Below, piece by piece: positions 30,681-45,616 of a stretch of 64,000 nt of DNA (position 1 is its first letter; each line of letters begins with the position of its first letter). The translations under genes and the position numbers were made by a program. The notes under the pieces are model-generated. The model was not told the DNA's origin. It searched no databases and worked only from the letters and a program-made list of their open reading frames with translations. Origin of the DNA: an uncultured Candidatus Saccharibacteria bacterium (lineage in GTDB: Bacteria; Patescibacteriota; Saccharimonadia; Saccharimonadales; JAUPVS01); NCBI GenBank assembly GCA_964410185.1, contig CAYPFM010000001.1, positions 208,860 through 272,859 on the forward strand. Direction: 5' to 3'.

Positions 30681-30953
30681 GATTTCCTGGAGCTCTACCC
30701 CCTTCTGGGTCAGCTCATAGGTATAGCGCGGTGGATGCTCGCAGTACATTCGTTTATCAACTATTTTTTCATCCTCTAGTTTGCAGAGACGCTGACTCAG
30801 AGTACGCGGGCTGATACCGGCTAAAGACGTCTCGAGATCGCCAAAACGGGCCTTGCCAGAAGAGAGGTCGCGGATAATCAGGGGCGTCCATTTGTCGCCC
30901 ATAATGTCGAGAGTTGCCTGAATGCAGCCGGGACGTTTTTCAATATTTACCAT
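30624..30953 (-). CDS. HxlR-family winged-helix transcriptional regulator
   Basis: GDKWTPLIIRDL...FGDL...ISPRTLSQRLCKLEDEKIV...Y.LT.KG pattern, 109 aa. Confidence 0.85.
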   Translation of the reverse strand: MVNIEKRPGCIQATLDIMGDKWTPLIIRDLSSGKARFGDLETSLAGISPRTLSQRLCKLEDEKIVDKRMYCEHPPRYTYELTQKGVELQEILVKMSDWGARHHSYQNIA

Positions 30954-31043
30954 AACAACAGTATACTCTGAAAAAATAGACTTTACAAAGTATAGTTAGT
31001 GACTATACTAAGTGTAGTAATAGTAAGAAAAAAGGAAGCTACG

Positions 31044-31601
31044 ATGAGTAAGAAATTTGCAGTCATTATTGGTTCTACCCGCCCTACCCGCATTGGTCAC
31101 GATATCGCCGATTGGTTTGTCCGGACCGTTGCTGACACGCCCGATGCTCAGTTTGAGACGATTGATTTGCGCGAGGTTAACCTGCCATTTATGGACGAGC
31201 CGAATACGCCGTCACTTGGTCAGTACCAGAAAGACTATACCAACAAGTGGAAGGCATTAGTTGATTCGTATGATGGCTTTGTATTTGTTACGGCCGAGTA
31301 TAACGCTGGCTACCCAGCACCCCTTAAGAACGCCATAGATTACTTGAGTGCCGAGTGGCACGACAAGCCGGCAGCGATTGTCAGCTACGGATGGGGTGGT
31401 GGCGTTGGTGCGGCCGCCCAGCTACGTCAGGTACTAGAACGCCTCAAAATGCGCCCAACTGGCACGAGCCCGGCGCTAACCTTTGGTGCCGATACCTTTA
31501 ACGAATCCGCCCAACTCCAGGATGTTGATAAGAGTTTTGCGGTCAATGTTGACGAAGCCAAGCTGGCGGCCAAGCAGCTTGTGGACCTGACTACTTCGTA
31601 A
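31044..31601 (+). CDS. NADPH-dependent FMN reductase
   Basis: Internal ATG at 31044 with an aaaggaag RBS. AVIIGSTRPTRIG...FVTAEYNAGYPAPLKNAID. Divergent from hxlR. Confidence 0.8.
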   Translation: MSKKFAVIIGSTRPTRIGHDIADWFVRTVADTPDAQFETIDLREVNLPFMDEPNTPSLGQYQKDYTNKWKALVDSYDGFVFVTAEYNAGYPAPLKNAIDYLSAEWHDKPAAIVSYGWGGGVGAAAQLRQVLERLKMRPTGTSPALTFGADTFNESAQLQDVDKSFAVNVDEAKLAAKQLVDLTTS

Positions 31602-32256
31602 AGGTCAGGCTTTTTGTCACCAGCAGGTTGAAGTCGTTCAATACATCGGGGTTGGCTGGGGGTTGGGTGTAGCCAGCCACGTAGGTTTTGCCATTGGTGT
31701 AAAAAACGTAATTCACGACAATCGTCCCGTCGGCCAAGGCTCCCATGCCAGGTGTGTCCGAGGCAGCTTGCCCTTTTGCCGTACCGCTAATTTTCTTGCC
31801 CGTTACGCCATCGACAGTGACGTCAGTTTTAGTGACAGCCGTATAACCGGTTCCCAGTTCATAGTTGCTGCGTGAATCGCCGTCAGTAGACGTGATGTGC
31901 ACCTGTCCAAAGCCTTCCGAAGCACAAACTCCAACTGTTGCAGTGGTTGGTCCAAGCAGGAGGATCCCTGGGCTACAGAGCTCGGGGTGAGTAGCCTTAA
32001 CCCAGGTTGTTGGGTAGCGCAGAGCAAACTTACCGGCCGCATCGCTGTATACAGTCCAGGTCGCCGTAGGGTCGGCTTCTGTTTTAGGCACTGGCGTTGA
32101 AGTAGTTTTTTGGACAGTGGTTGTGGTGGTTGTCGCCGGTGCTTTCTTTTGGTTTTTGTAGACCAGCCAGCCCGCCGCGCCGATGAGCGCAACAATCAAA
32201 ATAATAAACAGGATGGTTAGTGCCGAGCCGGATTGGTTGTTTTGGAGTTTCTTCAT
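31591..32256 (-). CDS. hypothetical anchored/secreted protein with Thr-rich linker
   Basis: 221-aa ORF with an N-terminal TM helix. Confidence 0.5.
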   Translation of the reverse strand: MKKLQNNQSGSALTILFIILIVALIGAAGWLVYKNQKKAPATTTTTTVQKTTSTPVPKTEADPTATWTVYSDAAGKFALRYPTTWVKATHPELCSPGILLLGPTTATVGVCASEGFGQVHITSTDGDSRSNYELGTGYTAVTKTDVTVDGVTGKKISGTAKGQAASDTPGMGALADGTIVVNYVFYTNGKTYVAGYTQPPANPDVLNDFNLLVTKSLTFTK

Positions 32257-32323
32257 AGTACCCTAAGCATAAGCTGTGTTGATTTGTTTTGCAAAGAAGG
32301 GGCTATCCAATATAATCGGCAGT

Positions 32324-33421
32324 ATGAAGAAGATCCGCCTCTTATTGGCCATTGTTCTCGTGAGCATTGGCGTAGCCATCACTTACCATTATTTTGAATA
32401 CGCCGTCCACCATTCGATTACCTACATCTGGGACACCCTGCTCAACACCCAAACTCACCGGTGGCTGGTGGTGCCAACCTGTCTGGTGCTGGGGCTGGCC
32501 TTTTTTGGTTTACAACATTGGCTCGATCCAGCGTCCGAAAAGCATGCCAGTGAAGGGCTCGGCGAAATGCCAACCCCTACCATCGTTAACTTCGCCAAAG
32601 TGTTGTTTATCGGCTTCTTTTCGCTGGTGGCTGGAGCCTCGCTCGGCCCCGAAGCTATCCTGGTGCCCGCTTCGATGGTGATTGGCGGCTATGTCGGCGT
32701 GAAGCTATTCAAAAAAGACAGTCAATTGGCCAAGCTGTTGGCGATGGTTGGCTTCATTGCCCTGTTTGCATCCTTCTTTAATTCATTCATTGCCGGCATG
32801 CTAGGGCTGTTGTTGGTTACCAAGCAGGTCAAGATTAAGCTAAACACTGGCTTAGTACTTGTGGCTGCACTGGCATCAGTTACAACCGTGCTAGCACTCA
32901 AAGTCTTGTCATCTTCGGCCTTTGTAGAAATGCCACCATATAGCTGGCAGCAGTCACCACGGACATTGTTGACGCTAGTAGTCTTAGTTGTTGCCGGGTT
33001 CGCGTTGACCTACATCCTAAAGGGCTTACACATCGGCATTGATAAACTGCACGCCGTGGTTAAGCAATACCCGTGGTGGGTCAAGGGCACCGTGGCTGCA
33101 GTTGGTCTGTCGGCGTTGTACCTACTCGGTGGTTCGCTGGTGATGTTCACTGGTAACGAATCGATTGTACCTATGCTTCAACAAGCACCAACACTTGGTT
33201 TGGTTGGTCTGGCCTGGATCTTGGTGGTCAAGTTATTTGCCATAAGTTGGTCCAAGACCATGGGCTACCGCGGCGGCATGATATTCCCAACGGTCTTTGC
33301 GGCTAGCGTCTGCGTGGCTTTCTCGCAAACCATCGTCAAGGATGTGAACTTCGTTTACGGCTTAATCGCCGTCATCTTTGGCGTCCTGGCAGCCAATAAG
33401 AAGCTACAGATTTTGTTCTAG
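32324..33421 (+). CDS. ClC-family voltage-gated chloride channel-like protein (short form)
   Basis: Internal ATG at 32324, 7 nt after TATAAT (32311-32316). GASLGPEA and GGMIFP motifs resemble the ClC GxEGP and GxFxP motifs. Confidence 0.6.
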   Translation: MKKIRLLLAIVLVSIGVAITYHYFEYAVHHSITYIWDTLLNTQTHRWLVVPTCLVLGLAFFGLQHWLDPASEKHASEGLGEMPTPTIVNFAKVLFIGFFSLVAGASLGPEAILVPASMVIGGYVGVKLFKKDSQLAKLLAMVGFIALFASFFNSFIAGMLGLLLVTKQVKIKLNTGLVLVAALASVTTVLALKVLSSSAFVEMPPYSWQQSPRTLLTLVVLVVAGFALTYILKGLHIGIDKLHAVVKQYPWWVKGTVAAVGLSALYLLGGSLVMFTGNESIVPMLQQAPTLGLVGLAWILVVKLFAISWSKTMGYRGGMIFPTVFAASVCVAFSQTIVKDVNFVYGLIAVIFGVLAANKKLQILF

Positions 33422-33437
33422 CGACAGGGACCATACA

Positions 33438-33466
33438 TTGATAAATATAGTATAAAGTGATATAAT
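33438..33466 (+). promoter_or_regulatory. promoter TTGATA-17-TATAAT
   Basis: Hexamers at 33438-33443 and 33461-33466. ATG at 33476. Confidence 0.5.
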
Positions 33467-33475
33467 ATTGGTATT

Positions 33476-34774
33476 ATGTCCTCGGTCCCTGACATCCTAA
33501 TCCTCACTAGCCTCTCCCCAAAAGAGCAGGCTGGTATGTTGTATTCACCAAACCTCTCTGCTAAAGCCCAGGAGTATAGCCGGTACGAGGGGCAAATGTG
33601 GTCCAGCTATCTAGAGACTGAGCCGGGTGAACTTCTCGAAGAACATGAAGCACGGCGTCTTGCCGACTATTACCACATCAAAACTGCCGAAAAACTCCAG
33701 AATAATCCAAAGAATGCGCTGCTATGGACGGAACGGTTTAATCAGGCAGGGGTGGAGATATACGGTGATATTGACCCGGCAGAGGTTCAGTCTATTGCCG
33801 TGCAAGAACTTAGCTTACTTGGTGATGGTGATGGTGTCGGTTCGTTTGTCGTAGGAGCTTACCAGCGTCTAGCTGGAGAAGGCGGTGAGGTTATAAAATC
33901 TAAAGAAGCTCAGATCGATTTTGGGGAATTCAGGGATGTCTTATTCGATCAATTTAAACCAATCGTGGACACAATTGAAGCACTAGAAGAAGGTCAGTTT
34001 GAAGCACCGGCCGTTCGTGCTTGCTTTCAGGAAATAATCGACAAGTTAGCGAAAGAAGACCCCGAGTGGGACAACTGGAAAATCACAAATCCAGACGGGA
34101 AGACAATGTTAGCAGTAGTGTCACCAAACAAAGAAATCGAAATACCCGATGGTCGTGGCCCGGTTGGTAGTAAGCAGGAGCTGTTCGGGTTGGCCTTGCA
34201 TGAGTTGGGCGTCCATGCGACACGTGCGGTCAACGGTCAAAAAACGGGGGATAGCATGATGGAAAGAAATGGTTTACCAAACTATATAGACTTCGAAGAA
34301 GGGCTTGGTATCTTTTTTGAGTATATGGCCACTGGCAAAGTTCCTGAAAAAGCACGGGACAGGTATGTTGATATCGCCTTGGCAACCGGAGTTGTAGCGG
34401 GCTATCGTCTCAGCCGCGAGGAACTGATAGAACTGGGTAGTAGCCGTCAACAAGCGCGTGCTATGGCTGCGGGGCAAGAACAAGTTGCAGATCATGAAGC
34501 GGTAATCAGCCACGTCAATCGTATTTTTCGCGGTGGTAATGGTCTGCCAATACGCGACGTGAATGGCACCATCATCGACCAAGCGGTCTTCAATAAGGAC
34601 CTGGTGTACTACCAAGGTTTTCTCAAGGTGCAGGACTTTATTCGGACACAACTGCAAGCCGGCCTTTCACCCAAACAGGTGATTGATTATGTGTTGGCAG
34701 GTAAGTTTGATGCCACCAATCCTCGGCACGTTGCTTACGTTGCCCAAAAGCACCAGCTCTCGCTTACTGCGTAA
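33476..34774 (+). CDS. putative zinc metallopeptidase (HExxH; possibly DUF1704-like)
   Basis: LALHELGVHATRA contains HExxH. A downstream FEEGLGIFFEY motif follows. The family assignment is from memory only. Confidence 0.45.
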   Translation: MSSVPDILILTSLSPKEQAGMLYSPNLSAKAQEYSRYEGQMWSSYLETEPGELLEEHEARRLADYYHIKTAEKLQNNPKNALLWTERFNQAGVEIYGDIDPAEVQSIAVQELSLLGDGDGVGSFVVGAYQRLAGEGGEVIKSKEAQIDFGEFRDVLFDQFKPIVDTIEALEEGQFEAPAVRACFQEIIDKLAKEDPEWDNWKITNPDGKTMLAVVSPNKEIEIPDGRGPVGSKQELFGLALHELGVHATRAVNGQKTGDSMMERNGLPNYIDFEEGLGIFFEYMATGKVPEKARDRYVDIALATGVVAGYRLSREELIELGSSRQQARAMAAGQEQVADHEAVISHVNRIFRGGNGLPIRDVNGTIIDQAVFNKDLVYYQGFLKVQDFIRTQLQAGLSPKQVIDYVLAGKFDATNPRHVAYVAQKHQLSLTA

Positions 34775-34871
34775 CCTGTGCTCGAAGCAAGCTTCTGTGC
34801 GCGACATTGTTCTTCGAACCACTTTTGCTTTGCAAAAGCCTTGGTTTGCTCCCAACAACTCATGAGTAAAT

Positions 34872-34893
34872 AAAAACCATCCGGAAGGATGGT
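34872..34893 (-). terminator. intrinsic terminator oriented for the minus strand
   Basis: accatcc-ggaa-ggatggt hairpin (34876-34893). The T-run falls on the minus strand (A-run 34872-34876 on plus). It lies 10 nt from the left att core. Confidence 0.55.
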
Positions 34894-35132
34894 CTTGATT
34901 TACTGGTGGGGACGGTGTCGGCTTATTTGAAACACGCCCATTAGAAGACATCCTAGCAGATATAGCAGTTGGCTGGAATGATACTCGGCGTATCATTGGT
35001 AATCTGCGGTCCGGCACAACACCTGAATTAAGTTATGTCCTATAAGAGGTCATGACTATAAGACGAAAGTGTTTGAAACAAACAATATGCTTATGCTATG
35101 TCATACGGCATACACGGACTAAAATAGTATGA

Positions 35133-36884
35133 ATGGCATACCATCTTATAAGCATAGGAATAGCGGCATACTCAAACCCAGCAAATAATCTGGACTTCCC
35201 TGATGACGATGCGGGCGAGCTAAGCGCCATCATGAGACACAGTTTGGGTAGTGAGCTTACTTACGATGCTTTGCTTAGAGACAGTGAGGCAACCCAAATA
35301 GGCATCAGGACTGCACTTGAGGCGGATGAGCTAAAGGGCGCTACTGCTGGTGATACGCTCATTGTTTATTATTCCGGTCACGGCGCTTTAGTGCAGAACA
35401 ACGGCAGCGGGGAGGCTTATCTTGCACCTTACGATGTAAGTGGCAATGTTGCAGTATCGGGCATCTCTACAACTGAGATAAAAGCATTGCTTGATAATCT
35501 TAACCACGGAAACAAAATCGTGCTGCTGGATTGCTGCTATAGCGGTGGAGCGAATGCAAAAAGCATCAGCCATGTTAAGCACAAAGATTTGACTAGCATC
35601 AAGGCATTTCAAAATCAGAGCTATGCCGAGGGGACTTTTGTGTTTACTGCCTGTAAAGAAGATGAAACTGCTATTGAAGTACAAGACCTTAAGCACGGGC
35701 TATTTACATACCAGCTTATTGAAGAGTTGGTTAAAGGCACTGGCGAGAGCGTTGCTTTGAGTAGTTTACATGACCCAGTCACTAAGGCGGTAGAGGAGAC
35801 TGCGAAGAAGTATTCGCACAAACAAACCCCTACTATACAGATGAACGCGAAGGGTAGTATGACACTACCAAAGCTGGCTAAGCCACCCGTACTAAAGCCC
35901 GAACTTATAAAAGTTCCGACAGTCCAAAACGAAAAGCCGACTGTCGTGGCTGCGCCACAGATTGATATTAGTGACAAAAAAACGCAGGAGCTTGTTCAAG
36001 CGACTATTAGTTTGATAGAAGGTGCATCTAACACTAAATTGGGTCAAATCACCTTTCGCTCAACACTAAGCAAGATACTAGCCATTGTTAAAGACGCACA
36101 TGCTGCTCAACCTAAGCATGTAAACAAAGCCGATGAAGTTGCCGTTTTAGTGGGTAAACTTGAGGCTAAGAGTTTTCAGCTCATGCTTACTGCTGCCGTG
36201 GTTTCTGTAGCTGGCAACGAACAAACTCTTAAGATTTTCAGCGAAGAGGTCGGAGAGATGCTGGTTTGGAAACGAGGTCAGAGCGGTCTCGTAGCCCTGA
36301 TTGAGATGCCTGACGTTATTTTCTTGGCAGTTCTATACATTATGTTCGTGTGCGCTATTTATACAGATGACTATATGCCCGTCGGCAAACTACTCAATAC
36401 CCATGTATACGACCAGTATAGCGGTCGTAGTGGGAGCTATAAGCGCGTTTCACAACACTACGAGATACACTACGCCGATGCTTTAGGCGGTAACGCAAAA
36501 ACCGTAATGACACATATTGTTGACCTGCTTACTTCGCAGGAGTGGCTACTTGAACTGCTTGGGATTAACAAGGAAAAATTAACAAGTCTCATACTCCAAG
36601 CAAACTTATGCCTATGCGTCGTGATGTCACGGAGCGGAGAACGCACATATCCGGGCTACAATGACTTTGAGCTTGCTAATGTTGCACCGTTCGTAAATCG
36701 CATACGCACAGACGAAACAACACGCACCAATGTAGCCAAGCACTTACTAGGGGCTAAGCAGGATGAAGTCGCGCAAATATTTGCGGATGAGGTTGCAAAG
36801 CTTAACCAATCTAGCGGTAGCCATTGGTGGAGCTACTTAAGACCAGAGAGCTTTACTCAAGATGTTGATTTGGAGCAAGACTAA
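35133..36884 (+). CDS. caspase-like (peptidase C14) protease with an unknown ~330-aa C-terminal domain
   Basis: His-Cys dyad context: LIVYYSGHGAL and IVLLDCCYSGG. I recognise nothing in the C-terminal 330 aa. Confidence 0.75.
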   Translation: MAYHLISIGIAAYSNPANNLDFPDDDAGELSAIMRHSLGSELTYDALLRDSEATQIGIRTALEADELKGATAGDTLIVYYSGHGALVQNNGSGEAYLAPYDVSGNVAVSGISTTEIKALLDNLNHGNKIVLLDCCYSGGANAKSISHVKHKDLTSIKAFQNQSYAEGTFVFTACKEDETAIEVQDLKHGLFTYQLIEELVKGTGESVALSSLHDPVTKAVEETAKKYSHKQTPTIQMNAKGSMTLPKLAKPPVLKPELIKVPTVQNEKPTVVAAPQIDISDKKTQELVQATISLIEGASNTKLGQITFRSTLSKILAIVKDAHAAQPKHVNKADEVAVLVGKLEAKSFQLMLTAAVVSVAGNEQTLKIFSEEVGEMLVWKRGQSGLVALIEMPDVIFLAVLYIMFVCAIYTDDYMPVGKLLNTHVYDQYSGRSGSYKRVSQHYEIHYADALGGNAKTVMTHIVDLLTSQEWLLELLGINKEKLTSLILQANLCLCVVMSRSGERTYPGYNDFELANVAPFVNRIRTDETTRTNVAKHLLGAKQDEVAQIFADEVAKLNQSSGSHWWSYLRPESFTQDVDLEQD

Positions 36885-36940
36885 GGTCATCCGTATTTTT
36901 TATAAGAAAATGGATAGCGTAAGTCTCCACTACCCTTGCT

Positions 36941-36998
36941 ATGGACACTCCGCTGTATAAGTACCCAATTTTTGGGGGTGAGTTGACCAACGCTTTTT
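36941..36998. repeat. direct repeat R1 (~58 nt)
   Basis: ATGGACACTCCGCTGTATAAGTACCCAATTTTTGGGGG...CCAACGCTTTTT, similar to R2 at 38638-38695. Confidence 0.7.
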
Positions 36999-37563
36999 AA
37001 ACTTCTAGCAACTTATCGCGTAAGCTATCAAACTTTGTATAACCAGCTCTTTTATTAAAGTGACCAGCATTAGGTATGAATGACAGTTCAACGCCTAAGT
37101 GTTTTGCTAACTCTTTGCCATTATCTAATCCAACATAAGGGTCATCATCAGACTGATATACAACGAAGTTTTCAGCATTTTGTTTAATTTTGTCCCAATC
37201 AAAATCAAAACCGCTAAAGGCATTATCACGGTCATAGTTCAGTATTGGTCTAACGCCTATTGGTGCGCCGACAAAGAATGCCGCTTTAATCGGGTGGTCT
37301 AGCTTTTCCAAGACACGAAGTGTAAAAATACCGCCTAAGCTATGTCCAACAATAATCGTGTCTTTGGTAATCTTATCATCGTACTCTTTCAGGACATCAA
37401 ACCATTCAGAAATCTTTGCGGGAACGACAGGCGGCGAAGGAAACTGCGGAACGGTAACTTCATAGCCTTTTGCTTCAAGCTCCTGCTTTAGCCAAGGAAA
37501 CCAATTTTCCTGCGGGTGTCCTTCTGTGCCATGAAATATAAATACGTTTGCTAGCTTGCTCAT
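36997..37563 (-). CDS. alpha/beta serine hydrolase (YdeN/RBBP9-like)
   Basis: 188 aa with a GHSLGG nucleophile elbow. Short single-domain hydrolase with a late Asp and His (DDDPYV, NAGHF). Confidence 0.7.
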   Translation of the reverse strand: MSKLANVFIFHGTEGHPQENWFPWLKQELEAKGYEVTVPQFPSPPVVPAKISEWFDVLKEYDDKITKDTIIVGHSLGGIFTLRVLEKLDHPIKAAFFVGAPIGVRPILNYDRDNAFSGFDFDWDKIKQNAENFVVYQSDDDPYVGLDNGKELAKHLGVELSFIPNAGHFNKRAGYTKFDSLRDKLLEV

Positions 37564-38081
37564 AGTAGCTCCTTTGCTGTTTGCAGAAATGCCAAGTCAC
37601 GCTTTTGTATGAATTGACCTTCTAGGTTGTCGGGCTTGTCCTGTAATAACAAGGCTATCGTATCATCTATGTCCTTGGCTTTTATTTCAAACATGCCTTC
37701 AGCAAGTTCACCTTCTTCTAGTGCTGATGCAACTTGCTCCCCAACTTGCTTAGCAAGATAGCAGTAGGATGTTTGTTCCAAGCCGCCATCATCGTAATTG
37801 CGGTATTCAACGACAGTGCCAAGTTCAGCTACAATTTCAGCCTTGCAGCCAACTTCTTCCATCAACTCACGCTCTAGTGCTTGTTTTATATCTTCGCCAT
37901 CGTCTATACCACCGCCAGGTAGCTTATGATAGCCGTGCTTACTTACATTGAGTAGGTAAACCTGACCGCTGTTATCAAGCAGAACTGCCCTAGCTGCACC
38001 TCTCTTTCTAAAAGTAGAAGTATCAACTACCGGGCTATTCCGTACGATGTCTTGTTCTTTGATAGTTAGCAGGTTCTTCAT
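37560..38081 (-). CDS. NUDIX hydrolase
   Basis: Nudix box GGGIDDGEDIKQALERELMEEVGC. A 4-nt overlap with the downstream hydrolase gene. Confidence 0.8.
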   Translation of the reverse strand: MKNLLTIKEQDIVRNSPVVDTSTFRKRGAARAVLLDNSGQVYLLNVSKHGYHKLPGGGIDDGEDIKQALERELMEEVGCKAEIVAELGTVVEYRNYDDGGLEQTSYCYLAKQVGEQVASALEEGELAEGMFEIKAKDIDDTIALLLQDKPDNLEGQFIQKRDLAFLQTAKELL

Positions 38082-38560
38082 TACATTGAACCTCTGGCAT
38101 TCTGGTCAACTAAGCCACCAATTACTACGGCAGAATAAATCTCTGTATCGCCGTCATAAATCCACTCATTAACGGTGTGGTCGGTAATATCACCTTCAAC
38201 AGTACTTTTATATGTCAGCTTATCTTTTTTATATTCAGCAGGACCACGATAGGGATTATCCTCACCCGGATGTTGCAACGCCTCACGCAGAAAGTCATAA
38301 ACTTCATCTGCTGGCTTATCTGTTTTCCCGTAATAAACTTCCATAAAAACAGGCTCGGTTTTATAAAATATCACTAAGCGCCCTCCGTATGGTTCGCCAC
38401 CAAAGAAGTTATCGTGCATGTGATAATCGCCGTCTGTAAACTCAATCGTTCGTGAACCGTCTTGCTCCTTAACGGTTTTAGCTGTTCCTGTTGCGTGAGG
38501 TATATTTGCCTTTATCAGAAATGCTTTTAGTTCATCAAGATTTACGCTTTGTGTATCCAT
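38081..38560 (-). CDS. hypothetical protein (first gene of the three-gene operon)
   Basis: Track ORF 38081..38686. I prefer the ATG at 38560 (MDTQSVNLDELKAF) because the longer form reads through repeat R2. A 1-nt overlap with the Nudix gene. Confidence 0.55.
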   Translation of the reverse strand: MDTQSVNLDELKAFLIKANIPHATGTAKTVKEQDGSRTIEFTDGDYHMHDNFFGGEPYGGRLVIFYKTEPVFMEVYYGKTDKPADEVYDFLREALQHPGEDNPYRGPAEYKKDKLTYKSTVEGDITDHTVNEWIYDGDTEIYSAVVIGGLVDQNARGSM

Positions 38561-38637
38561 AACTACATAATAACAGCGGTAACTTACAATATCTACCTGA
38601 AAAGGAATGGGGGCGGGGTCGCCCGTTAATCTGGTAA

Positions 38638-38695
38638 ATGGCACTCCGCTGTATAAATGCCTAATTTTTGGGAGCAAAATCGCCAAGCGTTTTTT
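38638..38695. repeat. direct repeat R2 (~58 nt)
   Basis: ATGGCACTCCGCTGTATAAATGCCTAATTTTTGGGAG...CCAAGCGTTTTTT. The first 20 nt are nearly identical to R1 and the remainder is roughly three-quarters identical, judged by eye. Confidence 0.7.
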
Positions 38696-38940
38696 GGCAA
38701 AAAAGGAATGCCGAATATTTGGGGCTGACTTTGAAAATGAGTTATATTAAGAGTACATATTAACAATCTATGTATTTCATGTAGCAGCCAATACGGAGAC
38801 GACCCGCTCAAAGACCGGGGCAGCACAATACATGAAATGTAAGTAAAACGAGATACGACCTCGGCAAAAAACGGACTTACGAGCGTGGCTAACGATGCCA
38901 TAGCGTACTTTTGTATGTTTGTGGCTTGGGAGTAAAACCG

Positions 38941-39090
38941 TGAGTGCCGTATCTCAAGAGCAAAGCGAGACTGAAAGCAGTCTTAAAGACCTGATTGATG
39001 TTCTACAAGAAATAGATACATCAAGCCCGATGGCTAAAACAAACGAACAATCAATAAGCGACAATAACGGCGGGAGGATTATTCTGTAAT
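38941..39090 (+). CDS. candidate small acidic protein upstream of recombinase A (below track cutoff)
   Basis: Frame open from 38893. GTG at 38941 (or TTG at 38911) to TAA at 39088-39090. ...SLKDLIDVLQEID... Confidence 0.25.
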
Positions 39091-39109
39091 CTAACGCTAT
39101 ACTTGCAAT

Positions 39110-40717
39110 ATGTACGATGAACAAGAGGTAGACTTAAAGACGCTTAAATATGTCATGTACCTTCGCAAATCCACTGAGGATGAAGGAAGACAGATTAGGT
39201 CTATTGGCGACCAAGAAAAAGATTGTAAAGATTTAGTTAAACGGCTAGGCCTAAATGTCATTGATACAATTAGAGAAGAAAAGTCGGCAAAAAAGCCCGG
39301 TCATCGCCCCGCTTTTCTAGACATGCTCAAACGAATAAGACGCAAAGAGTTTGATGCGATTATTGCTTGGCATCCAGACCGACTATCGCGCAATAGTATT
39401 GAAAGCGGCAAAATATTACACATGCTGGACACGGATGTTATAAAAGACATCCGTTTTGTTTCTCATCAGTTTTCAAATGATGCAAATGGCAAGATGCTTT
39501 TGGGGATGCTATTTGTGTTTAGTAAACATTATTCCGATGACCTTTCTTCTAAAGTTAAGCGAGGCGTAAGAGGCAACCTTCGTGACTATAAATCGGGTGG
39601 CACGCCAAAACATGGCTACATACGCGACAACGAGGGTATATACCGCATAGATGGTAAGAACTTTGAGATTATCCAGCGTGCTTGGCAAATGAGAGCTAAT
39701 GGCGAGAATATTCAAATGATATGCGACTTTATAAATGAGCAAGGTTATCAAAAGTTCTTCAAAAAAGAAGACAAAGGGCATCAGACATTTGTAATGACGG
39801 ATAGCGTACTTAGCAACCTTTTCAAAGACACCTTTTATTATGGTGAGCTTGTGCAATCCGATGAAGTCATAGATTTAGTAAAAGCACCTGTACCTTTTGA
39901 GCCTATGATTGACCGTGACACATATTTCAGGGCGCAAGAGTACGGCAGAACTAACCAACGAACCAGCAAAGGTCGTAAGCCAATATTGCCATTACGCTAT
40001 ATGGTGTATTGCTCGGTTTGCGAGTTTGATAGACCAATGCAGGTTGGTCGTTCAAGAGGACGAGATGGAGTTACTCGCTTATATTACAGATGTCTTAATA
40101 GCAAATGCACCAGAGCGTACGGCAGTAGAAGTATTAGAGGCAAGCTAGTTTTTGACGAGATTGACCGAGTTATTAAAGAAAAACTAGAAAGTCTTCCGCC
40201 GGAGGCATATGACAAATACATTAAGGAAGTAAAAACTTATAGCACAACCGCCAAGACGAAAATCAGAGCCGACTTAACTAGAGCTAAAGCTACGCGAAAT
40301 GGTTACGAGGAAAGAGTTATTAAGTTGTCTACATCACTTGATTTAATTTCTAACAAGACAGCACTCAAGACAATTACAGACCAAATTAGCGAGGCAACTC
40401 AAGAGATGAACAGACTAGACCAAGCTATCAAAAAATATCAGAATGATATAGAGAAGGCTACTTTGCCTAAGATTGACCGCAAAGAGTTCGAAAGCACTAT
40501 TTCTCAACTGGGCGCTAAGCTAAAAGCAGCGGATGTGGTTCAAAAGGACATAATTGCTAGTAATTTGTTTTTGAACCTATATTTTGACCATCAAAAAATG
40601 ACGCACTACTCCTTAAAAGAGCCGTTCGCGTCATTAGTTGAGTTAAATGCAATCCAACTTGGTGGGGGTGGTTGGAATCGAACCAACTACCAAGTGGTTA
40701 TGAGCCGCCTGCTCTAA
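39110..40717 (+). CDS. large serine recombinase/integrase; last ~16 codons are antisense tRNA sequence
   Basis: YLRKSTEDE...DRLSRN resolvase catalytic domain, recombinase domain, zinc ribbon (CSVCEF...YYRCLNSKC) and coiled coil. The ORF crosses the att core at 40660. Confidence 0.85.
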   Translation: MYDEQEVDLKTLKYVMYLRKSTEDEGRQIRSIGDQEKDCKDLVKRLGLNVIDTIREEKSAKKPGHRPAFLDMLKRIRRKEFDAIIAWHPDRLSRNSIESGKILHMLDTDVIKDIRFVSHQFSNDANGKMLLGMLFVFSKHYSDDLSSKVKRGVRGNLRDYKSGGTPKHGYIRDNEGIYRIDGKNFEIIQRAWQMRANGENIQMICDFINEQGYQKFFKKEDKGHQTFVMTDSVLSNLFKDTFYYGELVQSDEVIDLVKAPVPFEPMIDRDTYFRAQEYGRTNQRTSKGRKPILPLRYMVYCSVCEFDRPMQVGRSRGRDGVTRLYYRCLNSKCTRAYGSRSIRGKLVFDEIDRVIKEKLESLPPEAYDKYIKEVKTYSTTAKTKIRADLTRAKATRNGYEERVIKLSTSLDLISNKTALKTITDQISEATQEMNRLDQAIKKYQNDIEKATLPKIDRKEFESTISQLGAKLKAADVVQKDIIASNLFLNLYFDHQKMTHYSLKEPFASLVELNAIQLGGGGWNRTNYQVVMSRLL

Positions 40718-40735
40718 CCGATGAGCTACACCCCC
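40660..40735 (-). tRNA. tRNA with CAU anticodon, most like tRNA-Ile2 (lysidine type); tRNA-Met not excluded
   Basis: GGGGGTGTAGCTCATCGGTTAGAGCAGGCGGCTCATAACCACTTGGTAGTTGGTTCGATTCCAACCACCCCCACCA folds as a cloverleaf of 76 nt with CCA encoded. The anticodon arm and variable region resemble E. coli ileX as I remember it. Confidence 0.8.
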
Positions 40736-40811
40736 GTGCTAGGGCCAACAAAGGCGCTAACAGGGTGAGTATAGCAGATTTTGGGTAAAGGATTGTATAA
40801 TAGTGGAGTCG

Positions 40812-41264
40812 ATGCTCGAAAAAATAAAAAACTACCAAAACTATCCCGACCTAAAGCAGCTGCAAGATGTGCGCGTGCTTGGATTGTTGGTATTTGTCGG
40901 TATCGCCATACTGGTGAGCTGGAGTACGATCTCGGCCATTCAAACGAACTACAGTTTGCAAAAGCAAATCTCGGCCTTACAGCAGGAGAACCAGGTATTA
41001 GAGCTCAAGAACAATAACCAAAAATTGGCCAACCAGTACTACAATACCAACCAATTTTTGGAATTGGCCGCCCGCCGACAGTTTGGCAAGGCCGCCCCAA
41101 ATGAAAAGCTGTTGCTGGTTCCAAAAGCGGTGGCGCTCGCGCATACGGTCGATCTCAAAACTACAGCAGCCAAGACCGCCGAGGCGCCGTCGCACACGTC
41201 GACGTACCAGCGTAATTTTCAGGCTTGGATGGACTTTTTCCAGCACCGCTTGAATGATAATTAA
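40812..41264 (+). CDS. ftsB: septum formation initiator (FtsB/DivIC family)
   Basis: One TM helix followed by a coiled coil (QKQISALQQENQVLELKNNNQKL) and a conserved ELAARRQFG segment. Confidence 0.7.
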   Translation: MLEKIKNYQNYPDLKQLQDVRVLGLLVFVGIAILVSWSTISAIQTNYSLQKQISALQQENQVLELKNNNQKLANQYYNTNQFLELAARRQFGKAAPNEKLLLVPKAVALAHTVDLKTTAAKTAEAPSHTSTYQRNFQAWMDFFQHRLNDN

Positions 41265-41284
41265 GGAACCGGTACTGTTAAGCC

Positions 41285-41602
41285 ATGAATCAAATCAATA
41301 AGTACACCTATCATCTACTGGTCGGGGCGGCTGTCTCGATGGTTGCCTTGGGCACCATTTTTTATCATCTAACCGAAAAGTGGAGCTTGCTCGACGCCTA
41401 TTACTTTAGTGTCGTCAGTCTAACGACGGTTGGGTACGGCGATCTGGTGCCGCAGACAGCCAGCGGCAAGCTATTTACGACCTTTTATATAATGGCTGGA
41501 ATCGGTATTCTCGGTGCCTTTATTAATGCCTTCGTAAAAGTGCGAGGCCAGAAGGTCCAAGAACGCGTGCACAAGCGGCAGGAAAGTAAGCATAAGCAGT
41601 AA
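41285..41602 (+). CDS. minimal two-TM potassium channel
   Basis: Selectivity filter TTVGYGD between two TM helices, 105 aa. Confidence 0.8.
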   Translation: MNQINKYTYHLLVGAAVSMVALGTIFYHLTEKWSLLDAYYFSVVSLTTVGYGDLVPQTASGKLFTTFYIMAGIGILGAFINAFVKVRGQKVQERVHKRQESKHKQ

Positions 41603-41668
41603 CACTACTTCCTTGACATAATTTCCACTTAGCGGGATGATTAAAATATCAACTAAGGAGGGATAACA

Positions 41669-42064
41669 ATGGTTGCACCAAAAAATACACCAACCGGGTG
41701 GGTTGGCTGGATCTACTTTGCCGGCATTCTTTTGCTCGTACGTGCTGTACTGCAAGGATTCTTTGGCGTGGTAGCTCTAACTCACAGTACATTCTATGTG
41801 GTTACTGCCAAGCAGCTCGCTGTCTATAACTTTACCGCGTGGGGCTGGATTCACCTGGCTCTCGCTGTCGTGCTCCTGTTCGCCGGTTTCTCAGTGCTAT
41901 CAGGTCATCTTTTTGGCCGAGTAGTTGCTATGATCGTCGCTGCTCTGTCTTTGGTCGCTAACTTGGTCTTTTTGCCAGCCTACCCAGTCTGGTCAATCGC
42001 CGCTATCGCCATTGACGCCTTGATCTTGTACGCTCTCGTTGTCCACGGTCACGAAGTCGAATAA
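41669..42064 (+). CDS. hypothetical polytopic membrane protein
   Basis: 131 aa with 4 predicted TM helices. Confidence 0.5.
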   Translation: MVAPKNTPTGWVGWIYFAGILLLVRAVLQGFFGVVALTHSTFYVVTAKQLAVYNFTAWGWIHLALAVVLLFAGFSVLSGHLFGRVVAMIVAALSLVANLVFLPAYPVWSIAAIAIDALILYALVVHGHEVE

Positions 42065-42077
42065 GATTCTGGGTACA

Positions 42078-42116
42078 CAAAAAACCGGTCGGTAGAATGT
42101 ACGGCCGGTTTTTTAT
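42078..42116. terminator. bidirectional intrinsic terminator between convergent genes
   Basis: 9-bp stem aaccggtcg / cggccggtt flanked by an A-run and a T-run. Confidence 0.6.
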
Positions 42117-42793
42117 TTGAATTCAGTGACGGGCGGGATGTTGTAGAGCTTGACCATGGCGGGGTCGGTGGCTGTACCGCCGTAGAGAACGACCCAATTG
42201 CCGTCGGCCTGCTTGAGATAGTAAGTCTTGCTTGCGTTCGCTGCGTTGGCGGTCGTCGCACAAGTGGCAGTGACCGAGGCGTAGTTCTTGTCGGTTGAGT
42301 AGAGGACTTTCTTTTTATCGGTGCCTGAAGTTCCCTGCGTATAGACCAGCGCTTTGGCAGTGGTTGGATCAACTTGTGCCTGGCAGTAGGCGGTGGTGGA
42401 TTTAATGACTAGCTCATCAGCAGTTGGCTGCGTGGTATCCTTCGTCAGTTTGTCGTTATCGGCCTTGAGCGCCGCGTTTTGAGTTTGCAAATCAGTTATC
42501 TGGCTCTCGAGTTCACCACGTTGGGCAATCAGTCGGTCGACATGTTGATGCTGCCAGTAAAACACACCATAACCAGCCGCGCCCGCGAGAGCGAGTACGA
42601 CAAAAATCATGAGTAAAGCTTTGAGGAACTTATGGCCACCCTTTTTCGCCTTAGCAGGTGGTGGAGTCGGGGTGACAGGAACGTCAGGCTTAAAAGGGTC
42701 TTCTTGAACAGGAGGAGTCGGCGTGACAAGCGGTGCTTGGGGGCCGGGTCCAGGAGGGTTTGAGACGGGTTTAAAATCCATATCCATTTGCAT
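42113..42793 (-). CDS. hypothetical protein (Pro-rich N-terminus, TM helix, coiled coil)
   Basis: 226-aa ORF. Confidence 0.5.
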   Translation of the reverse strand: MQMDMDFKPVSNPPGPGPQAPLVTPTPPVQEDPFKPDVPVTPTPPPAKAKKGGHKFLKALLMIFVVLALAGAAGYGVFYWQHQHVDRLIAQRGELESQITDLQTQNAALKADNDKLTKDTTQPTADELVIKSTTAYCQAQVDPTTAKALVYTQGTSGTDKKKVLYSTDKNYASVTATCATTANAANASKTYYLKQADGNWVVLYGGTATDPAMVKLYNIPPVTEFK

Positions 42794-42993
42794 CCATTAT
42801 TACCGAAGTTAATAATAAACACAAGCGGAAATGAAATGGTAGCCATAGATAGAATTACTTGGAACTTAATTAAGACTGAACTGATTAGTATGTCCCAAAT
42901 CGTCACAATGTACGATAAACATTATCGGGGGTTAGCCTAAGCGGACGTACTAGAACCCCTGAAAGAGCTATAAGCATTAGCATAACATTTTAT

Positions 42994-43021
42994 TTGATAT
43001 GTCAATATTCTCTAGTACAAT
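42994..43021 (+). promoter_or_regulatory. promoter TTGATA-16-TACAAT
   Basis: Upstream of the ORF at 43045, which has a gaggga RBS. Confidence 0.45.
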
Positions 43022-43044
43022 GGTAAGTAAACCGAGGGACGCAC

Positions 43045-45042
43045 ATGAGAATTAGCCACGTTGAGATAGAAAACTACCGATCAATCGAAAAGATTGAGCT
43101 AAGAGTGCTTGACCCGACCATAGCCTGTTTTATTGGAGGGAATGGTAGTGGAAAATCAAACATCTTAAGAGCTATTGCTGCAATGAAGACTGGTCAAAAG
43201 TTTGATGATGACGATTTTTATGTTGAGGCAGGCGAGGAAGATGAGATTAAAGTATCGCTTACATTTATTCTGGAAAAATCAGACTTAGAGCTTTTAGAGC
43301 CGATTGGGCTAAAGTCACAACACGTAAGCGGGTTTAAGGTTACGAAAGTACAGAAGCTTGGGCAGAAACACACCGTATATGCTGAGTTACTAGGTTATGA
43401 CAATGTATTAGAAAAGCGACTTGAGAGTAAGCTTAATGTCATTACGCGTGCCATATCGGCGCAACTGAAACCTGAAGACGACCAAGAAGCCCATCTTAAG
43501 TTGAGCGCGACGATTCGTAACAGTGAAGAAACTAAAGAAGTAATAGACGCTAGTATTGTCAGTCTGATAACCACCCTTAAGCAATATGTGCCAGATGTCT
43601 CTACGCTGGGCATCGACGAGAAAGAACTTGAAGCTTTGGCAAACTTTAAACAGCCCAATTTTGCATACAAAGACCTGTTTGGTGCTATTGATATAGAGCT
43701 ACTTTCACTCGACGACTATCAAATAGCAAATGAGGCTCCCATTGAAGAGCTCCAAGTTAGAGATAGTCATCCTTTCCTATTTGACCTACTCTCCATATCT
43801 GGGAAGTCTGCTACTGACTTTTTGAATGCTGAGGGCAATAAAAAAATCAATATCTCAGAACAGGCTTCAGAACAACTTACCGATACAATGCAGAAAGTTT
43901 GGGGGTCTCATGGGCTACCGCTCGTCGTTCACAAAGATAAGAAGGACACGACCCTATCATTCTGTAGCAGGACGCCAAACCAGAAGGCGATTCCTTTAGA
44001 GAGTGCGAGTAAGGGTACACAATGGTTTCTTCGATTTTACACGAGACTAATAACTGCAAGGAATCACTCGAAGCGTATTATTTGGCTTTTTGATGAGCCA
44101 GACCTTGGTCTTCATGCAAAGTCCCAACAGGACTTAGTGAAACTCATTGAGGAACAGTCTGGCGACTCCCAAATACTATATTCAACGCATCAACCAATAA
44201 TGATTCAATGGCATCGTCTAGAACGTATTCATGTTGTTGAGAACGTCCCGAAGGTAAAACAGGAAAAGTTTGGAAAGGGTACAAAGGTACATCAACGGTT
44301 CTGGGATGATGGGGATTTTGACTCGCCTCTTAAAGAGGTGTTAAAGCTATTTATTGGTGAAGATATTCTCTGGACAAAGGAACATGTGGTTGTCGAAGGC
44401 CCTTCAGATTACTTCTACTTTGTGGGCTGGGCTAATCGTTTTGCCAACGATAATCCAAATGCAAAAATCTGGAATGATGAGTTCTCTTCTCCAAGCAGAG
44501 CTTTTGTTCCGGCCGGTAGTATCACTAACATCCCTCTCTTCTTATTCTTTCTCACAAAGAGGAATGGCGCAGAAACTGTAAACTGGGCGTCTATAACTGA
44601 CACAGGGAAAGATCACAGTGATATTAAGCAGGTAATAAATAGTACATCTCGCCTAAAAAGGTTTAGCGACCGAGTTATTGAATTGCAGAGGCCTGAAGGG
44701 GAGAAACTTGATAAAGACTTTGACGTTGAAGATCTTTTTGACCGACAAGAGTTCTACGACAAGGCAGCAGAGTACTATGCAGCTACGTATCCAGACTGCA
44801 AATTCCCAAACTATAAGGACTTAGCTAAACAAGAAAAAATAACCAAAACCTTAACTTCACAGCTAAAGAAACTTAACAAAGAGAAGATGCCTAACATATC
44901 GTTTGATAAGCCTGGTGTGGCTCAGTATATATACTCCCAGCTAGTGGTTGAAAACAAACCATTCTCGGAAGTATCTTTAAAGAACTTTAGATCGACGCTT
45001 AATGCAATCAATAGGGCATTTAGTCTTGACCCAACTGATTAG
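43045..45042 (+). CDS. OLD-family nuclease: ABC-type ATPase fused to a TOPRIM-like domain (class 1 OLD or fused PARIS-like)
   Basis: Walker A GGNGSGKS, signature-like SKGTQ, Walker B IIWLFDEPDLGLH and H-loop YSTHQP. This is followed by HVVVEGPSDYFYF (TOPRIM/DUF4435-type Glu). Confidence 0.7.
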   Translation: MRISHVEIENYRSIEKIELRVLDPTIACFIGGNGSGKSNILRAIAAMKTGQKFDDDDFYVEAGEEDEIKVSLTFILEKSDLELLEPIGLKSQHVSGFKVTKVQKLGQKHTVYAELLGYDNVLEKRLESKLNVITRAISAQLKPEDDQEAHLKLSATIRNSEETKEVIDASIVSLITTLKQYVPDVSTLGIDEKELEALANFKQPNFAYKDLFGAIDIELLSLDDYQIANEAPIEELQVRDSHPFLFDLLSISGKSATDFLNAEGNKKINISEQASEQLTDTMQKVWGSHGLPLVVHKDKKDTTLSFCSRTPNQKAIPLESASKGTQWFLRFYTRLITARNHSKRIIWLFDEPDLGLHAKSQQDLVKLIEEQSGDSQILYSTHQPIMIQWHRLERIHVVENVPKVKQEKFGKGTKVHQRFWDDGDFDSPLKEVLKLFIGEDILWTKEHVVVEGPSDYFYFVGWANRFANDNPNAKIWNDEFSSPSRAFVPAGSITNIPLFLFFLTKRNGAETVNWASITDTGKDHSDIKQVINSTSRLKRFSDRVIELQRPEGEKLDKDFDVEDLFDRQEFYDKAAEYYAATYPDCKFPNYKDLAKQEKITKTLTSQLKKLNKEKMPNISFDKPGVAQYIYSQLVVENKPFSEVSLKNFRSTLNAINRAFSLDPTD

Positions 45043-45124
45043 CCTTTAGGATACTAGCTTCTATTTCCGCTAAAAGCTCAAAATATTCAACAAGCACAGC
45101 TAGTTCCTCGTCGCTTAGTTTCAT
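45020..45124 (-). CDS. candidate 34-aa protein translationally coupled to the upstream membrane protein
   Basis: ATGA start/stop overlap at 45121-45124. Translation MKLSDEELAVLVEYFELLAEIEASILKANQLGQD. Confidence 0.35.
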   Translation of the reverse strand: MKLSDEELAVLVEYFELLAEIEASILKANQLGQD

Positions 45125-45549: not shown

Positions 45550-45587
45550 GGCTGATCCTCCATTATGTTATTAATGGGGAGGCCTGA

Positions 45588-45616
45588 ATAAAAAAGGACA
45601 ACCCCTCTAGGTTGTC
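45588..45616 (-). terminator. intrinsic terminator inside the leader of the 45549 gene
   Basis: gacaacc / ggttgtc 7-bp perfect stem (45597-45616). The T-run falls on the minus strand (plus-strand ataaaaaa at 45588-45595). Confidence 0.5.

Follow-up and report, generated by a model that had tools for sequence, protein, structure and literature searches.

A serine-recombinase island in a Saccharibacteria genome with its attachment site inside the integrase gene

The island, its boundaries and its cargo

The analysed stretch of DNA, hereafter the window, comprises 64,000 nt of contig CAYPFM010000001.1 (assembly GCA_964410185.1) from an uncultured Candidatus Saccharibacteria bacterium. It contains element A, a small integrative island of this genome that is mobilised by a large serine recombinase (LSR) and measures 5,756 bp when the core is counted once. 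The island adjoins the 3' end of a tRNA gene with anticodon CAU, which, by comparison with E. coli sequences, is probably the lysidine-modified tRNA-Ile2 and not tRNA-Met. The features are listed in Table 1.

Table 1. Features of element A and its insertion site, in window coordinates.
Feature	Position	Strand	Evidence
Intrinsic terminator of the minus-strand tRNA, moved 5.76 kb by the insertion	34873..34896	-	Hairpin, then minus-strand T-run
Common core (8 bp) TGGTGGGG, attL copy, crossover within	34904..34911		L005 homology start and empty-site breakpoint
Detached integrase 3' segment: last 44 codons and TAA, tail DGVGLFETRPLEDILADIAVGWNDTRRIIGNLRSGTTPELSYVL	34912..35045	+	Reconstruction; homologous tails in 24 elements
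TTGAAA motif, attP P' arm, +23 from core start; resembles tRNA T-loop complement; candidate zinc-ribbon-domain (ZD) binding motif	34927..34932	+	+23 in 23/24 elements
Conserved non-coding end of the left-end module, with palindrome GTCATGAC	35046..35080		blastn and alignment with L005: identity to 35080, then ends
Cargo: caspase-like protease (Peptidase_C14), uncharacterised C-terminal domain	35133..36884	+	Pfam 2.2e-19; PADLOC caspase 1.6e-11, PDC-S65
Cargo: serine hydrolase (alpha/beta fold)	36997..37563	-	PF06821, 3e-23
Cargo: NUDIX hydrolase	37560..38081	-	PF00293, 6e-16; PADLOC PDC-S07, 1.6e-9
Cargo: DUF5680 protein	38081..38686	-	PF18931, 3e-20
Conserved 49-aa ORF just 5' of the integrase, C-terminus ...SPMAKTNEQSISDNNGGRIIL	38940..39089	+	Gene call on L055
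Large serine recombinase, integrated form, 535 aa	39110..40717	+	Pfam
attR copy of the common core, complement of the tRNA 3'-terminal CCCCACCA	40660..40667
Intact target tRNA, anticodon CAU	40660..40735	-	ARAGORN; Rfam 63.7 bits
TCGAAC (T-loop complement), attB B' arm, +18 from core start	40678..40683	+

An earlier reading of this DNA (the sequence-only reading) had proposed a 5.76-kb serine-integrase element between two copies of the 8-mer TGGTGGGG, the right copy being the complement of the last 8 nt of the tRNA. The 8-mer occurs six times in the 64-kb window (1.8 expected; four of the six on the plus strand), so a second copy within 6 kb could easily be due to chance, and the repeat taken alone is weak evidence of a boundary. 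The boundary is genuine because two further observations coincide with the 8-mer: the homology to a related island (L005) begins precisely at 34904 in blastn and alignment, and the joins in empty sites fall exactly on it. Three contigs (L056, L057, and L058), which belong to a relative at about 80% nucleotide identity, carry the MATCAP / tRNA(CAU) / ftsB locus without the 5.76 kb. They join 34911 to 40657-40668 across the 8-mer, and the uninterrupted attB is present in each, as befits a precise insertion. The GC content between the 8-mer copies is 0.426, compared to 0.499 in the left flank and 0.498 in the right flank; the interior is AT-richer, as had been noticed, and its composition is not host-like.

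The hairpin ACCATCC-GGAA-GGATGGT (34876-34893), 10 nt from the left 8-mer and with its T-run on the minus strand, had been read as the terminator of a tRNA that the insertion left intact. In L056-L058, where the site is empty, 11 nt separate the end of the tRNA from an orthologous hairpin with compensatory stem changes. The observations of the sequence-only reading were thus confirmed and its interpretation is supported, with every element of the inference borne out and neither of the outcomes that it had named as refuting seen. A classical tRNA-gene island of the Islander type, with a tyrosine integrase and a long displaced tRNA fragment as direct repeat, was also considered and was ruled out, since element A has no Phage_integrase domain and its repeat is only 8 nt.

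The cargo of element A is swappable and partly defence-like. In the comparison to L005 the end modules are conserved, whereas the cargo is different, and the divergence starts past 35080. Related elements range from 3.1 to 10.4 kb and carry metabolic or defence-like cargo. LSRs are classically phage integrases, and a circular relative (L001) has a DUF5681 gene, as might be expected if element A were a remnant prophage or phage satellite. However, the Pfam assignments of its cargo are non-phage, and virion, packaging, and replication genes were not found in it. A PHROG search returned no matches for the DUF5680 protein, three proteins of a second element (below), and the 49-aa ORF, and no relative of the integrase was found among the IMG/VR viral contigs. 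Together with the small size and the kind of cargo, these results make a remnant prophage or phage satellite most improbable.

The C-terminal motif of the 49-aa ORF recurs upstream of the integrase in L001, L003, L009, L012, and L045, and incidentally in L017, L031, L037, and L041. The ORF matched no Pfam or PHROG family. No known recombination directionality factor was recognised in element A, and the 49-aa ORF is a candidate cofactor or directionality factor.

Two kb away in the same window lies element B (42837-48771), a distantly related LSR island of the same build. Its integrase is 29% identical to that of element A in the catalytic domain. The sequence-only reading had included neither this second element of the same design nor the fact that the arrangement is a family trait in Saccharibacteria.

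Integration splits the integrase gene

The integrase ORF of element A (39110-40717) has Pfam matches to Resolvase (PF00239, 2.2e-21, residues 15-154) and Recombinase (PF07508). Residues R19, K20, and S21 do not vary across the alignments, and the N-terminal resolvase-type catalytic domain has its nucleophilic serine. In the Cys4 zinc ribbon, every aligned sequence has C301, C304, and C333, and at least 90% have C328; PF13408 was recorded for some homologues. In an AF2 model, long helices (379-450) separate strands at 299-343 from strands at 487-502, and the catalytic domain, alpha-E helix, recombinase domain, zinc ribbon, and coiled coil are complete by residue 515.

Only residues 1-519 of the resident protein come from the element; for the final 16, the tRNA gene is read in antisense. 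About 1000 homologues were found, and nearly all of them have C-termini that are antisense-tRNA peptides. The annotated integrase C-termini in hundreds of Saccharibacteria genomes are antisense read-through into a tRNA gene and not the real protein end. Two points are new here: the integrase ORF enters the tRNA in antisense orientation, and joining the element ends restores a tail. The entry of the ORF into the tRNA and the true C-terminus at the left end are both absent from the sequence-only reading. When the ends of element A are joined as a circle, the reconstructed integrase gains 44 codons from the far left end, giving 563 aa instead of 535. The reading frames of the tail segment (34912..35045) and of 39110-40667 match only in the circle. 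In the integrated element, the sequence reads without an ATG, GTG, or TTG start in the tail frame, which is closed by a TGA at 34896-34898; selection can therefore act on the tail only via the circular form.

A homologous tail was reconstructed in 24 integrated elements, which target tRNA-Met, Ser, Pro, and Leu. The dN/dS of the tail is 0.09-0.30, similar to that of the gene body, and substitutions favour synonymous changes precisely in the junction frame. In the family of element B, three proteins in the attP form also have a conserved tail, which appears unrelated to that of family A and is equally conserved. A free circle with attP was seen for one member of family A, L001. This 9.3-kb contig has a 30-nt terminal overlap, which marks it as a circular assembly, and lacks a tRNA. 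Its 559-aa integrase is unbroken: the ORF contains TGGTGGGG, has TTGAAC at +23, and continues directly into the tail. The tail physically ends the integrase ORF in L001 and in P0094, P0111, P0085, and P0107. As a separate observation, L029 has an unsplit integrase that follows host-like genes; this is a point against the split-gene picture, which does not account for it.

The tail region might be conserved apart from the integrase, as a promoter or operator of the cargo or as a separate small gene, with the junction frame incidental. The conserved left-end module does continue for 35 nt beyond the stop codon and includes the palindrome GTCATGAC, and cargo genes follow on the same strand. In contrast, the synonymous bias is exact to the junction frame, the integrated frame has no start codon, and five ORFs physically end in the tail. 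By a rough estimate, an open frame of at least 42 codons would occur by chance in about 0.07 of cases per element, yet all 24 elements have one with homologous sequence. A role apart from the integrase is highly unlikely.

The 5.76 kb might also be an old, fixed, and immobile island with a relic integrase, the empty sites reflecting ancestral absence. Neither the circular junction of element A nor its own empty site was found in exact-pattern scans of JGI metagenome contigs, the element has no transfer or replication genes, and L055, from another sample, is the sole other occupied copy found and is identical in sequence. However, purifying selection acts on the integrase, the small ORF, and the tail, none of which is disrupted, L005 combines the same end modules with other cargo, and a related free circle exists. 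Selection on the tail, moreover, requires passage through the circular form. We consider a fixed island improbable.

We hold with great confidence to the structural description as a whole, in which attP of element A sits inside the integrase reading frame, insertion removes the last 44 aa, and excision would restore them; our confidence in the overall explanation is also high, if slightly less so.

Attachment sites and comparison to known systems

The att sites are short, as is typical of LSRs. Among 24 relatives the core is 6-13 nt long, without a long direct repeat, and the only part shared by all is 6 nt (positions 0-5, TGGNNN), the complement of the tRNA 3'-terminal NNNCCA. This agrees with the earlier suggestion of a crossover inside a short core. 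The crossover lies within the 6 bp that encode NNNCCA; it therefore keeps the tRNA intact and moves only its terminator 5.76 kb off. The P arm corresponds to codons of about 510-519, the core to the Gly-Gly codons, and the P' arm to the first ~8 codons of the 44-aa tail. With attP inside the integrase frame, the free circle therefore encodes the 563-aa integrase. Integration relocates these last codons to the far side of the island, and the resident copy retains all canonical LSR domains, with 16 antisense-tRNA residues replacing the tail.

In 23 of the 24 elements, B' has the motif T[TC]GAA[AC] at +18 and P' has it at +23; this was seen for the right-hand arms only. In LSR sites, the distance from the centre to the ZD motif is 5 bp shorter in attB than in attP (PMC3783163). 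Judged by motif position, the +18/+23 offset of the element A family equals this 5-bp shift. The top-conserved tail residues, F/L-E (codons TTTGAA), overlap the P' motif and may be conserved as DNA instead of protein.

Like the integrases of Listeria A118/LI, Bxb1, phiC31, and SPbeta, integrase A has catalytic and recombinase domains and a zinc ribbon with a coiled-coil insert. It also shares with these phage LSRs short att sites with few identical central bases and the 5-bp shift of the half-site motif (PMC3783163). Unlike them, the element A family targets the CCA end of tRNA genes (a contrast drawn with Mageeney et al.), adds the conserved 44-aa C-terminal tail, resides in Saccharibacteria, and has no recognised directionality factor.

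Archaeal integrases of the SSV1 type are tyrosine recombinases with attP inside the integrase gene and tRNA genes as targets, and integration splits them into two non-functional parts. Element A resembles them in attP position and target; in contrast, it loses just a C-terminal appendage. In the clostridial LSR element Tn4451 (TnpX), the joint of the circle creates a promoter, so that recombinase expression differs while the protein sequence is unchanged. Circle and integrated form differ in element A as well, but here the protein sequence changes.

The attB sites of Myxococcus phage Mx8 lie in tRNA-Asp genes. In this phage, attP falls within the coding part of the integrase gene; after integration the gene has another 3' end and the enzyme another C-terminus, and the prophage version is reportedly altered, not dead (PMC6070905). 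As in Mx8 intP/intX, the attP core of element A lies inside the integrase gene and integration swaps the C-terminus (563 vs 535 aa). However, Mx8 is a single 49-kb phage with a tyrosine recombinase, whereas the element A design is common to whole families of 3-10 kb islands with a serine recombinase. Element A is therefore Mx8-like in gene layout only and not a member of the Mx8 family. In mycobacteriophages BPs and Brujita, attP lies in the 3' end of the repressor gene, and integration alters the C-terminus and the behaviour of the repressor (PMC4557955). In that integration-dependent immunity the split gene encodes a repressor, the integrase is a tyrosine integrase, and integration strips off a degradation tag, whereas in element A the integrase itself is split.

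Tycheposons of Prochlorococcus are likewise small cargo islands at tRNA genes of a streamlined genome, and a minority of them, 27 of 937, use a large serine recombinase (bioRxiv 10.1101/2020.12.28.424599). Unlike element A, they mostly use tyrosine recombinases and many have replication genes; an attP-spanning integrase is not mentioned in the passages drawn on here.

Possible roles of the tail

The overlap between integrase gene and attP could be mere genome compaction in a very small element, with a dispensable tail and both protein forms alike. Every canonical LSR domain is already complete ahead of the crossover point, AF2 models the tail as disordered (pLDDT below 50, which gives no structural hint of a role), and the F-E pair, part of the tail conservation, is explicable by the att-site DNA motif. 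However, the tail is 42-50 aa long in every clade and extends ~35 codons past any plausible att site. A Trp and the terminal Y-x-[YL] persist even across clades with just 40% integrase identity. The dN/dS of 0.1-0.3 and the equal conservation of the family B tail also speak against compaction, which we regard as rather unlikely.

Tentatively, the gain and loss of the tail may act as a genuine activity switch. The tail would then alter the action of the enzyme; most likely it would be needed for, or would tune, attP x attB integration. The shortened enzyme of the integrated copy would have lower activity or require a cofactor, possibly in combination with the 49-aa ORF, and the recombination state would in turn influence the recombinase, as for intP/intX of phage Mx8. 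Somewhat doubtful is the proposal that the C-terminal swap is a built-in directionality or commitment switch of a serine integrase. The full-length enzyme, a product of the circle only, would drive integration; the truncated resident enzyme would differ in competence and may be locked, or excision-prone with the 49-aa ORF product, and the state of the DNA would set the state of the enzyme without a classical directionality factor. If true, this would be a new control mode for large serine integrases, widespread in Saccharibacteria.

Large serine integrases are prized for genome engineering since their direction is simply controlled, and a family in which the recombination state rewrites the C-terminus of the enzyme would, if this holds, represent an unexplored control principle. 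The family also supplies ready-made attP/attB pairs for the ends of Saccharibacteria tRNA genes, in a group where genetic tools are very few. For the biology of reduced genomes, the islands are small shuttles whose cargo is interchangeable and partly defence-like, and they occupy sites that spare essential tRNAs.

Boundaries of element A and its empty site

The sequence-only reading placed the ends of element A at two copies of the 8-mer TGGTGGGG, and these are present at 34904-34911 and 40660-40667. The right copy is the complement of the 3' CCCCACCA of an intact tRNA, which ARAGORN and Rfam located at 40660-40735 on the minus strand, with anticodon CAU. The 8-mer occurs six times in the window versus 1.8 expected, so the repeat is little proof by itself; being too common within the window, it was rejected as sole proof of the boundary. 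The interval is AT-richer, as had been noted (GC 42.6% versus 49.9% and 49.8% in the flanks), and the serine recombinase at its tRNA-proximal end corresponds to an ORF (39110-40717) for a large serine recombinase (LSR), in which Resolvase and Recombinase domains were identified. Ten nt separate the 8-mer from the hairpin at 34876-34893, which has its T-run on the minus strand and received a terminator-like score.

The left-hand neighbor of element A is a MATCAP/DUF1704-like gene. An exact-protein look-up of its product returned no record, owing to a different start-codon call, and a scan of genome contigs with the protein gave no relative. A protein homologue search followed by contig look-ups yielded a homologue with 84% identity (P0122) on four ENA contigs, and by this route an empty site was reached. 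A blastn comparison of the empty-site contig L056 with the window returned three collinear blocks (32405-34911, 40657-42843, and 48764-49033); the gene order MATCAP, tRNA, ftsB (DivIC), K-channel is thus kept, with the 5.76 kb and 42844-48763 absent. The first junction in L056 reads ...aaaaaccaccctttaggtggtgttcgtttaca-TGGTGGGG-gtggttggaatcgaacc..., and the attB junction predicted from the window is ...GGTCTTGATTTAC-TGGTGGGG-GTGGTTGGAATCG.... At this unoccupied site the hairpin, with compensatory stem changes, is 11 nt from the tRNA end, where the terminator had been expected. Element A is a serine-integrase element inserted site-specifically at the CCA end of the tRNA; the tRNA was left intact and its terminator displaced. 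Exact-pattern scans of JGI metagenome contigs matched neither the attB reconstructed from terminator, gap, and tRNA end nor the attP junction of element A; the two checks that had been proposed gave the empty site, in L056, and no circular junction in the JGI contigs.

The occupied site is present in another sample, in which a Logan contig (L055; SRR12404947) is 100% identical to 30734-40290 of the window. A MAG contig (L005) encodes an integrase with 96% identity to that of element A and has only 34904-35080 and 38554-41156 in common with the window. On the left, homology begins precisely with the 8-mer; L005 has unrelated cargo between the shared segments and a different left host flank. Together with the empty site, this pattern indicates that two conserved end modules flank exchangeable cargo in an element of 5,756 bp (one core copy counted).

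attP lies within the integrase gene

In the integrated state, the integrase ORF reads 58 nt into the tRNA in antisense, with ...AIQLGGGGWNRTNYQVVMSRLL as its C-terminus (535 aa, the resident form). When 40667 is joined to 34912, as in the excised circle, the frame remains open for 44 further codons; the resulting protein has 563 aa and ends ...LGG-DGVGLFETRPLEDILADIAVGWNDTRRIIGNLRSGTTPELSYVL. The predicted attP junction is ...GCAATCCAACT-TGGTGGGG-ACGGTGTCGGC.... The attP is embedded in the integrase ORF, and the state of the DNA sets which of two protein forms is encoded.

We recovered 986 homologues with the 563-aa query, and all those with a taxonomic name were Saccharimonadales or Saccharibacteria. 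In nearly all of them, the C-terminal peptide is the antisense translation of a tRNA 3' end (GGGGW[TIDN], GGGGWNRTNYQVVMSRLL, or GRGDRT immediately before the stop, as well as ..RIRTDDL.. and ..EIRTPAPG..). Four homologues (P0085, P0094, P0107, and P0111) carry long tails that are not of tRNA origin. The contig that encodes P0094 (L001, from Logan; 9,352 nt) contains no tRNA, and its 30-nt end overlap indicates a circular assembly (k=31). Its integrase ORF contains ...GGA-TGGTGGGG-CAGAAGCCATGAATTTTGAAC..., which is attP within the gene.

Two close relatives of the integrase, P0003 and P0073, end in neither way (..FQTGAILQPCPN and ..LGGGWRPHRRILRF.., respectively); these ends may reflect secondary-site insertions or frameshifts. 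On two MAG contigs (L029, CAXSFI010000005.1, 10001-11689; L035, 10001-11704) the integrase is unsplit and full-length, has a long tail, and is not accompanied by a tRNA. Host-like genes (miaA, folP, M50 peptidase, ABC transporter, MazF) precede it in L029, where it adjoins a TnpB-like ORF and is 1.4 kb away from the end of the contig. Such genes could stem from an assembly path through the circular junction, or from a copy that is not integrated via its own attP.

Conserved tail and attachment-site geometry

A scan of species-representative genomes yielded 50 integrase loci, in most of which the 3' end of the integrase overlaps a minus-strand tRNA. Met(CAU) is the commonest target; Ser(GCU), Pro(GGG/CGG), and Leu(UAG/CAG/UAA/GAG) also occur. 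In L010 (11613-11837, minus strand) and L011, a group I intron interrupts the anticodon loop of the target tRNA(CAU) (Rfam RF00028, 72.4 bits), so the integrase ORF runs via the 3' exon of the tRNA into the intron, which accounts for the 553-aa P0028 and the 559-aa P0026.

Both element ends were available for 24 loci, and these were used for reconstruction. Each has a core copy of the tRNA end, 6-13 nt long, 3.1-10.4 kb upstream, and circular joining at this copy lengthens the ORF by 42-50 codons, which encode a recognizably homologous tail. Pairwise Nei-Gojobori dN/dS values were 0.09-0.30 for the tail, similar to the 0.07-0.34 obtained for the final 120 codons of the gene body. Once the element is integrated, neither ATG, GTG, nor TTG is available in the tail frame, and a TGA five codons upstream closes it; only the circle therefore allows translation of the tail, and an independent small gene was ruled out, as there is no start codon. 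The conservation of the tail points indirectly to a circular form that is expressed and of importance to the element. The tail would modulate integrase activity, and we tentatively entertain a genuine switch of that activity with the state of the DNA. About 35 nt past the tail stop codon (35046-35080) are conserved with L005 and include a perfect palindrome, GTCATGAC, which may act as an operator or mark where the integrase transcript ends in the circle.

In an AF2 model of the full-length integrase (mean pLDDT 76.8), the catalytic domain, alpha-E helix, recombinase domain, and zinc ribbon (299-343 plus 487-515, with a long coiled coil in between) are complete by residue 515, short of the crossover at residue 519. 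All canonical domains are thus kept in the resident protein, which loses only an appendage. The tail was modelled with pLDDT below 50, from an alignment with five tail-bearing rows only. That the tail is a dispensable compaction seems only slightly less probable to us than the activity switch; another role, such as protein stability, takes up the probability that remains beside this and the activity switch. In a PDB sequence search, the sole match was the TP901-1 catalytic domain.

Core positions 0-5 read TGGNNN, the complement of NNNCCA, in all 24 loci (TGGTGG in element A), and since every core contains them, the crossover must fall within these positions. When the central dinucleotide was sought by dyad symmetry, only a weak maximum at +4/+5 emerged; as that position would be palindromic in the Pro and Leu clades, the crossover is placed only within positions 0-5. 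Counted from the core start, the T-loop complement T[TC]GAAC is found at +18 in the B' arm, in the tRNA, and T[TC]GAA[AC] at +23 in the P' arm, in the element, each in 23 of the 24 elements. Rutherford et al. proposed that the zinc-ribbon domain of serine integrases discriminates attP from attB by a half-site motif located 5 bp nearer the center in attB (PMC3783163); the family of element A has the same 5-bp shift, with attB nearer the center. Given this geometry, the enzyme probably reads the T-loop sequence, and the conservation of the F/L-E pair (tail residues 7-8, codons TTT GAA) may be one of DNA. The other ~35 tail codons lie outside any plausible att site.

Cargo, precedent and a second element

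The features of both elements are collected in the table. Phage, conjugation, or replication genes were not found in element A, nor were relatives of its integrase in IMG/VR. Two copies of a 53-nt direct repeat (CACTCCGCTGTATAA..AATTTTTGG.., 75% identical) lie in the cargo at 36946-36998 and 38642-38694, one just beyond the hydrolase gene on its 3' side and one at the 5' end of the gene for the DUF5680 protein. The 49-aa ORF has no family in Pfam or PHROGs; upstream of the integrase, its C-terminal motif, ...SPxAKLNExSISDNNGGRIxL, is found again in clades with only 40%-identical integrases, and in L001 and L003. The ORF is a candidate for a cofactor or directionality factor. Between the tRNA (40660) and 38863, no terminator was detected on the minus strand, so transcription of the tRNA may continue antisense across the integrase while the element is integrated.

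Features of elements A and B (window coordinates; motif positions relative to the core start)
Feature	Position	Strand	Remarks
Element A, 49-aa ORF	38940-39089	+	ends 20 nt before integrase start codon
Element A, caspase-like protease			PADLOC caspase and PDC-S65
Element A, serine hydrolase			
Element A, NUDIX hydrolase			PDC-S07
Element A, DUF5680 protein			
Element A, TTGAAA	+23		attP
Element A, TCGAAC	+18		attB
Element B	42837-48771		GC 43.1%; second serine-integrase island
Element B, core TGGTAGC	42837-42843, 48765-48771		3' end of second tRNA(CAU), 48765-48841
Element B, AriA/OLD/GajA-like ATPase	43045-45042		cargo
Element B, integrase	47258-48808		reads into tRNA

The closest precedent is by analogy Myxococcus phage Mx8, whose attP lies in the integrase gene and whose integration creates a new 3' end of the gene, such that the product is altered, not dead (PMC6070905); the Mx8 integrase, however, is a tyrosine recombinase, whereas that of element A is a serine recombinase. 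In the searchable literature, we found neither a serine integrase whose own gene contains attP nor any LSR element described from Patescibacteria or Saccharibacteria. In a 2020 survey, serine integrases were described as not previously known to target tRNA genes (PMC7192596); a minority of tycheposons carry LSRs at tRNA genes (bioRxiv 10.1101/2020.12.28.424599). The chemistry and site logic of element A are ordinary for an LSR. Relative to the searchable literature, the split gene, the conserved tail, the targeting of tRNA ends, and the host group are new.

Judging from E. coli sequences, we take the target of element A to resemble tRNA-Ile2 (lysidine) and that of element B to resemble elongator tRNA-Met. 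A third tRNA(CAU), at 49656-49730 on the plus strand, is unoccupied, with a terminator directly after it and the C1xU72 mismatch typical of an initiator.

Element B is also missing from L056, and the breakpoint is its core. Its integrase has 29% identity to that of element A, in the catalytic domain only, and lengthens from 516 aa when integrated to 536 aa after circular joining. It has 327 homologues, and nearly all among the matches listed end in ...LVAATGIEPVTSGL before the stop, which is antisense tRNA; the tails of P0207, P0212, and P0220 match the reconstructed ..TWNLIKTELISMSQIV.. of element B. This pattern indicates that the design is common to two distant LSR families.
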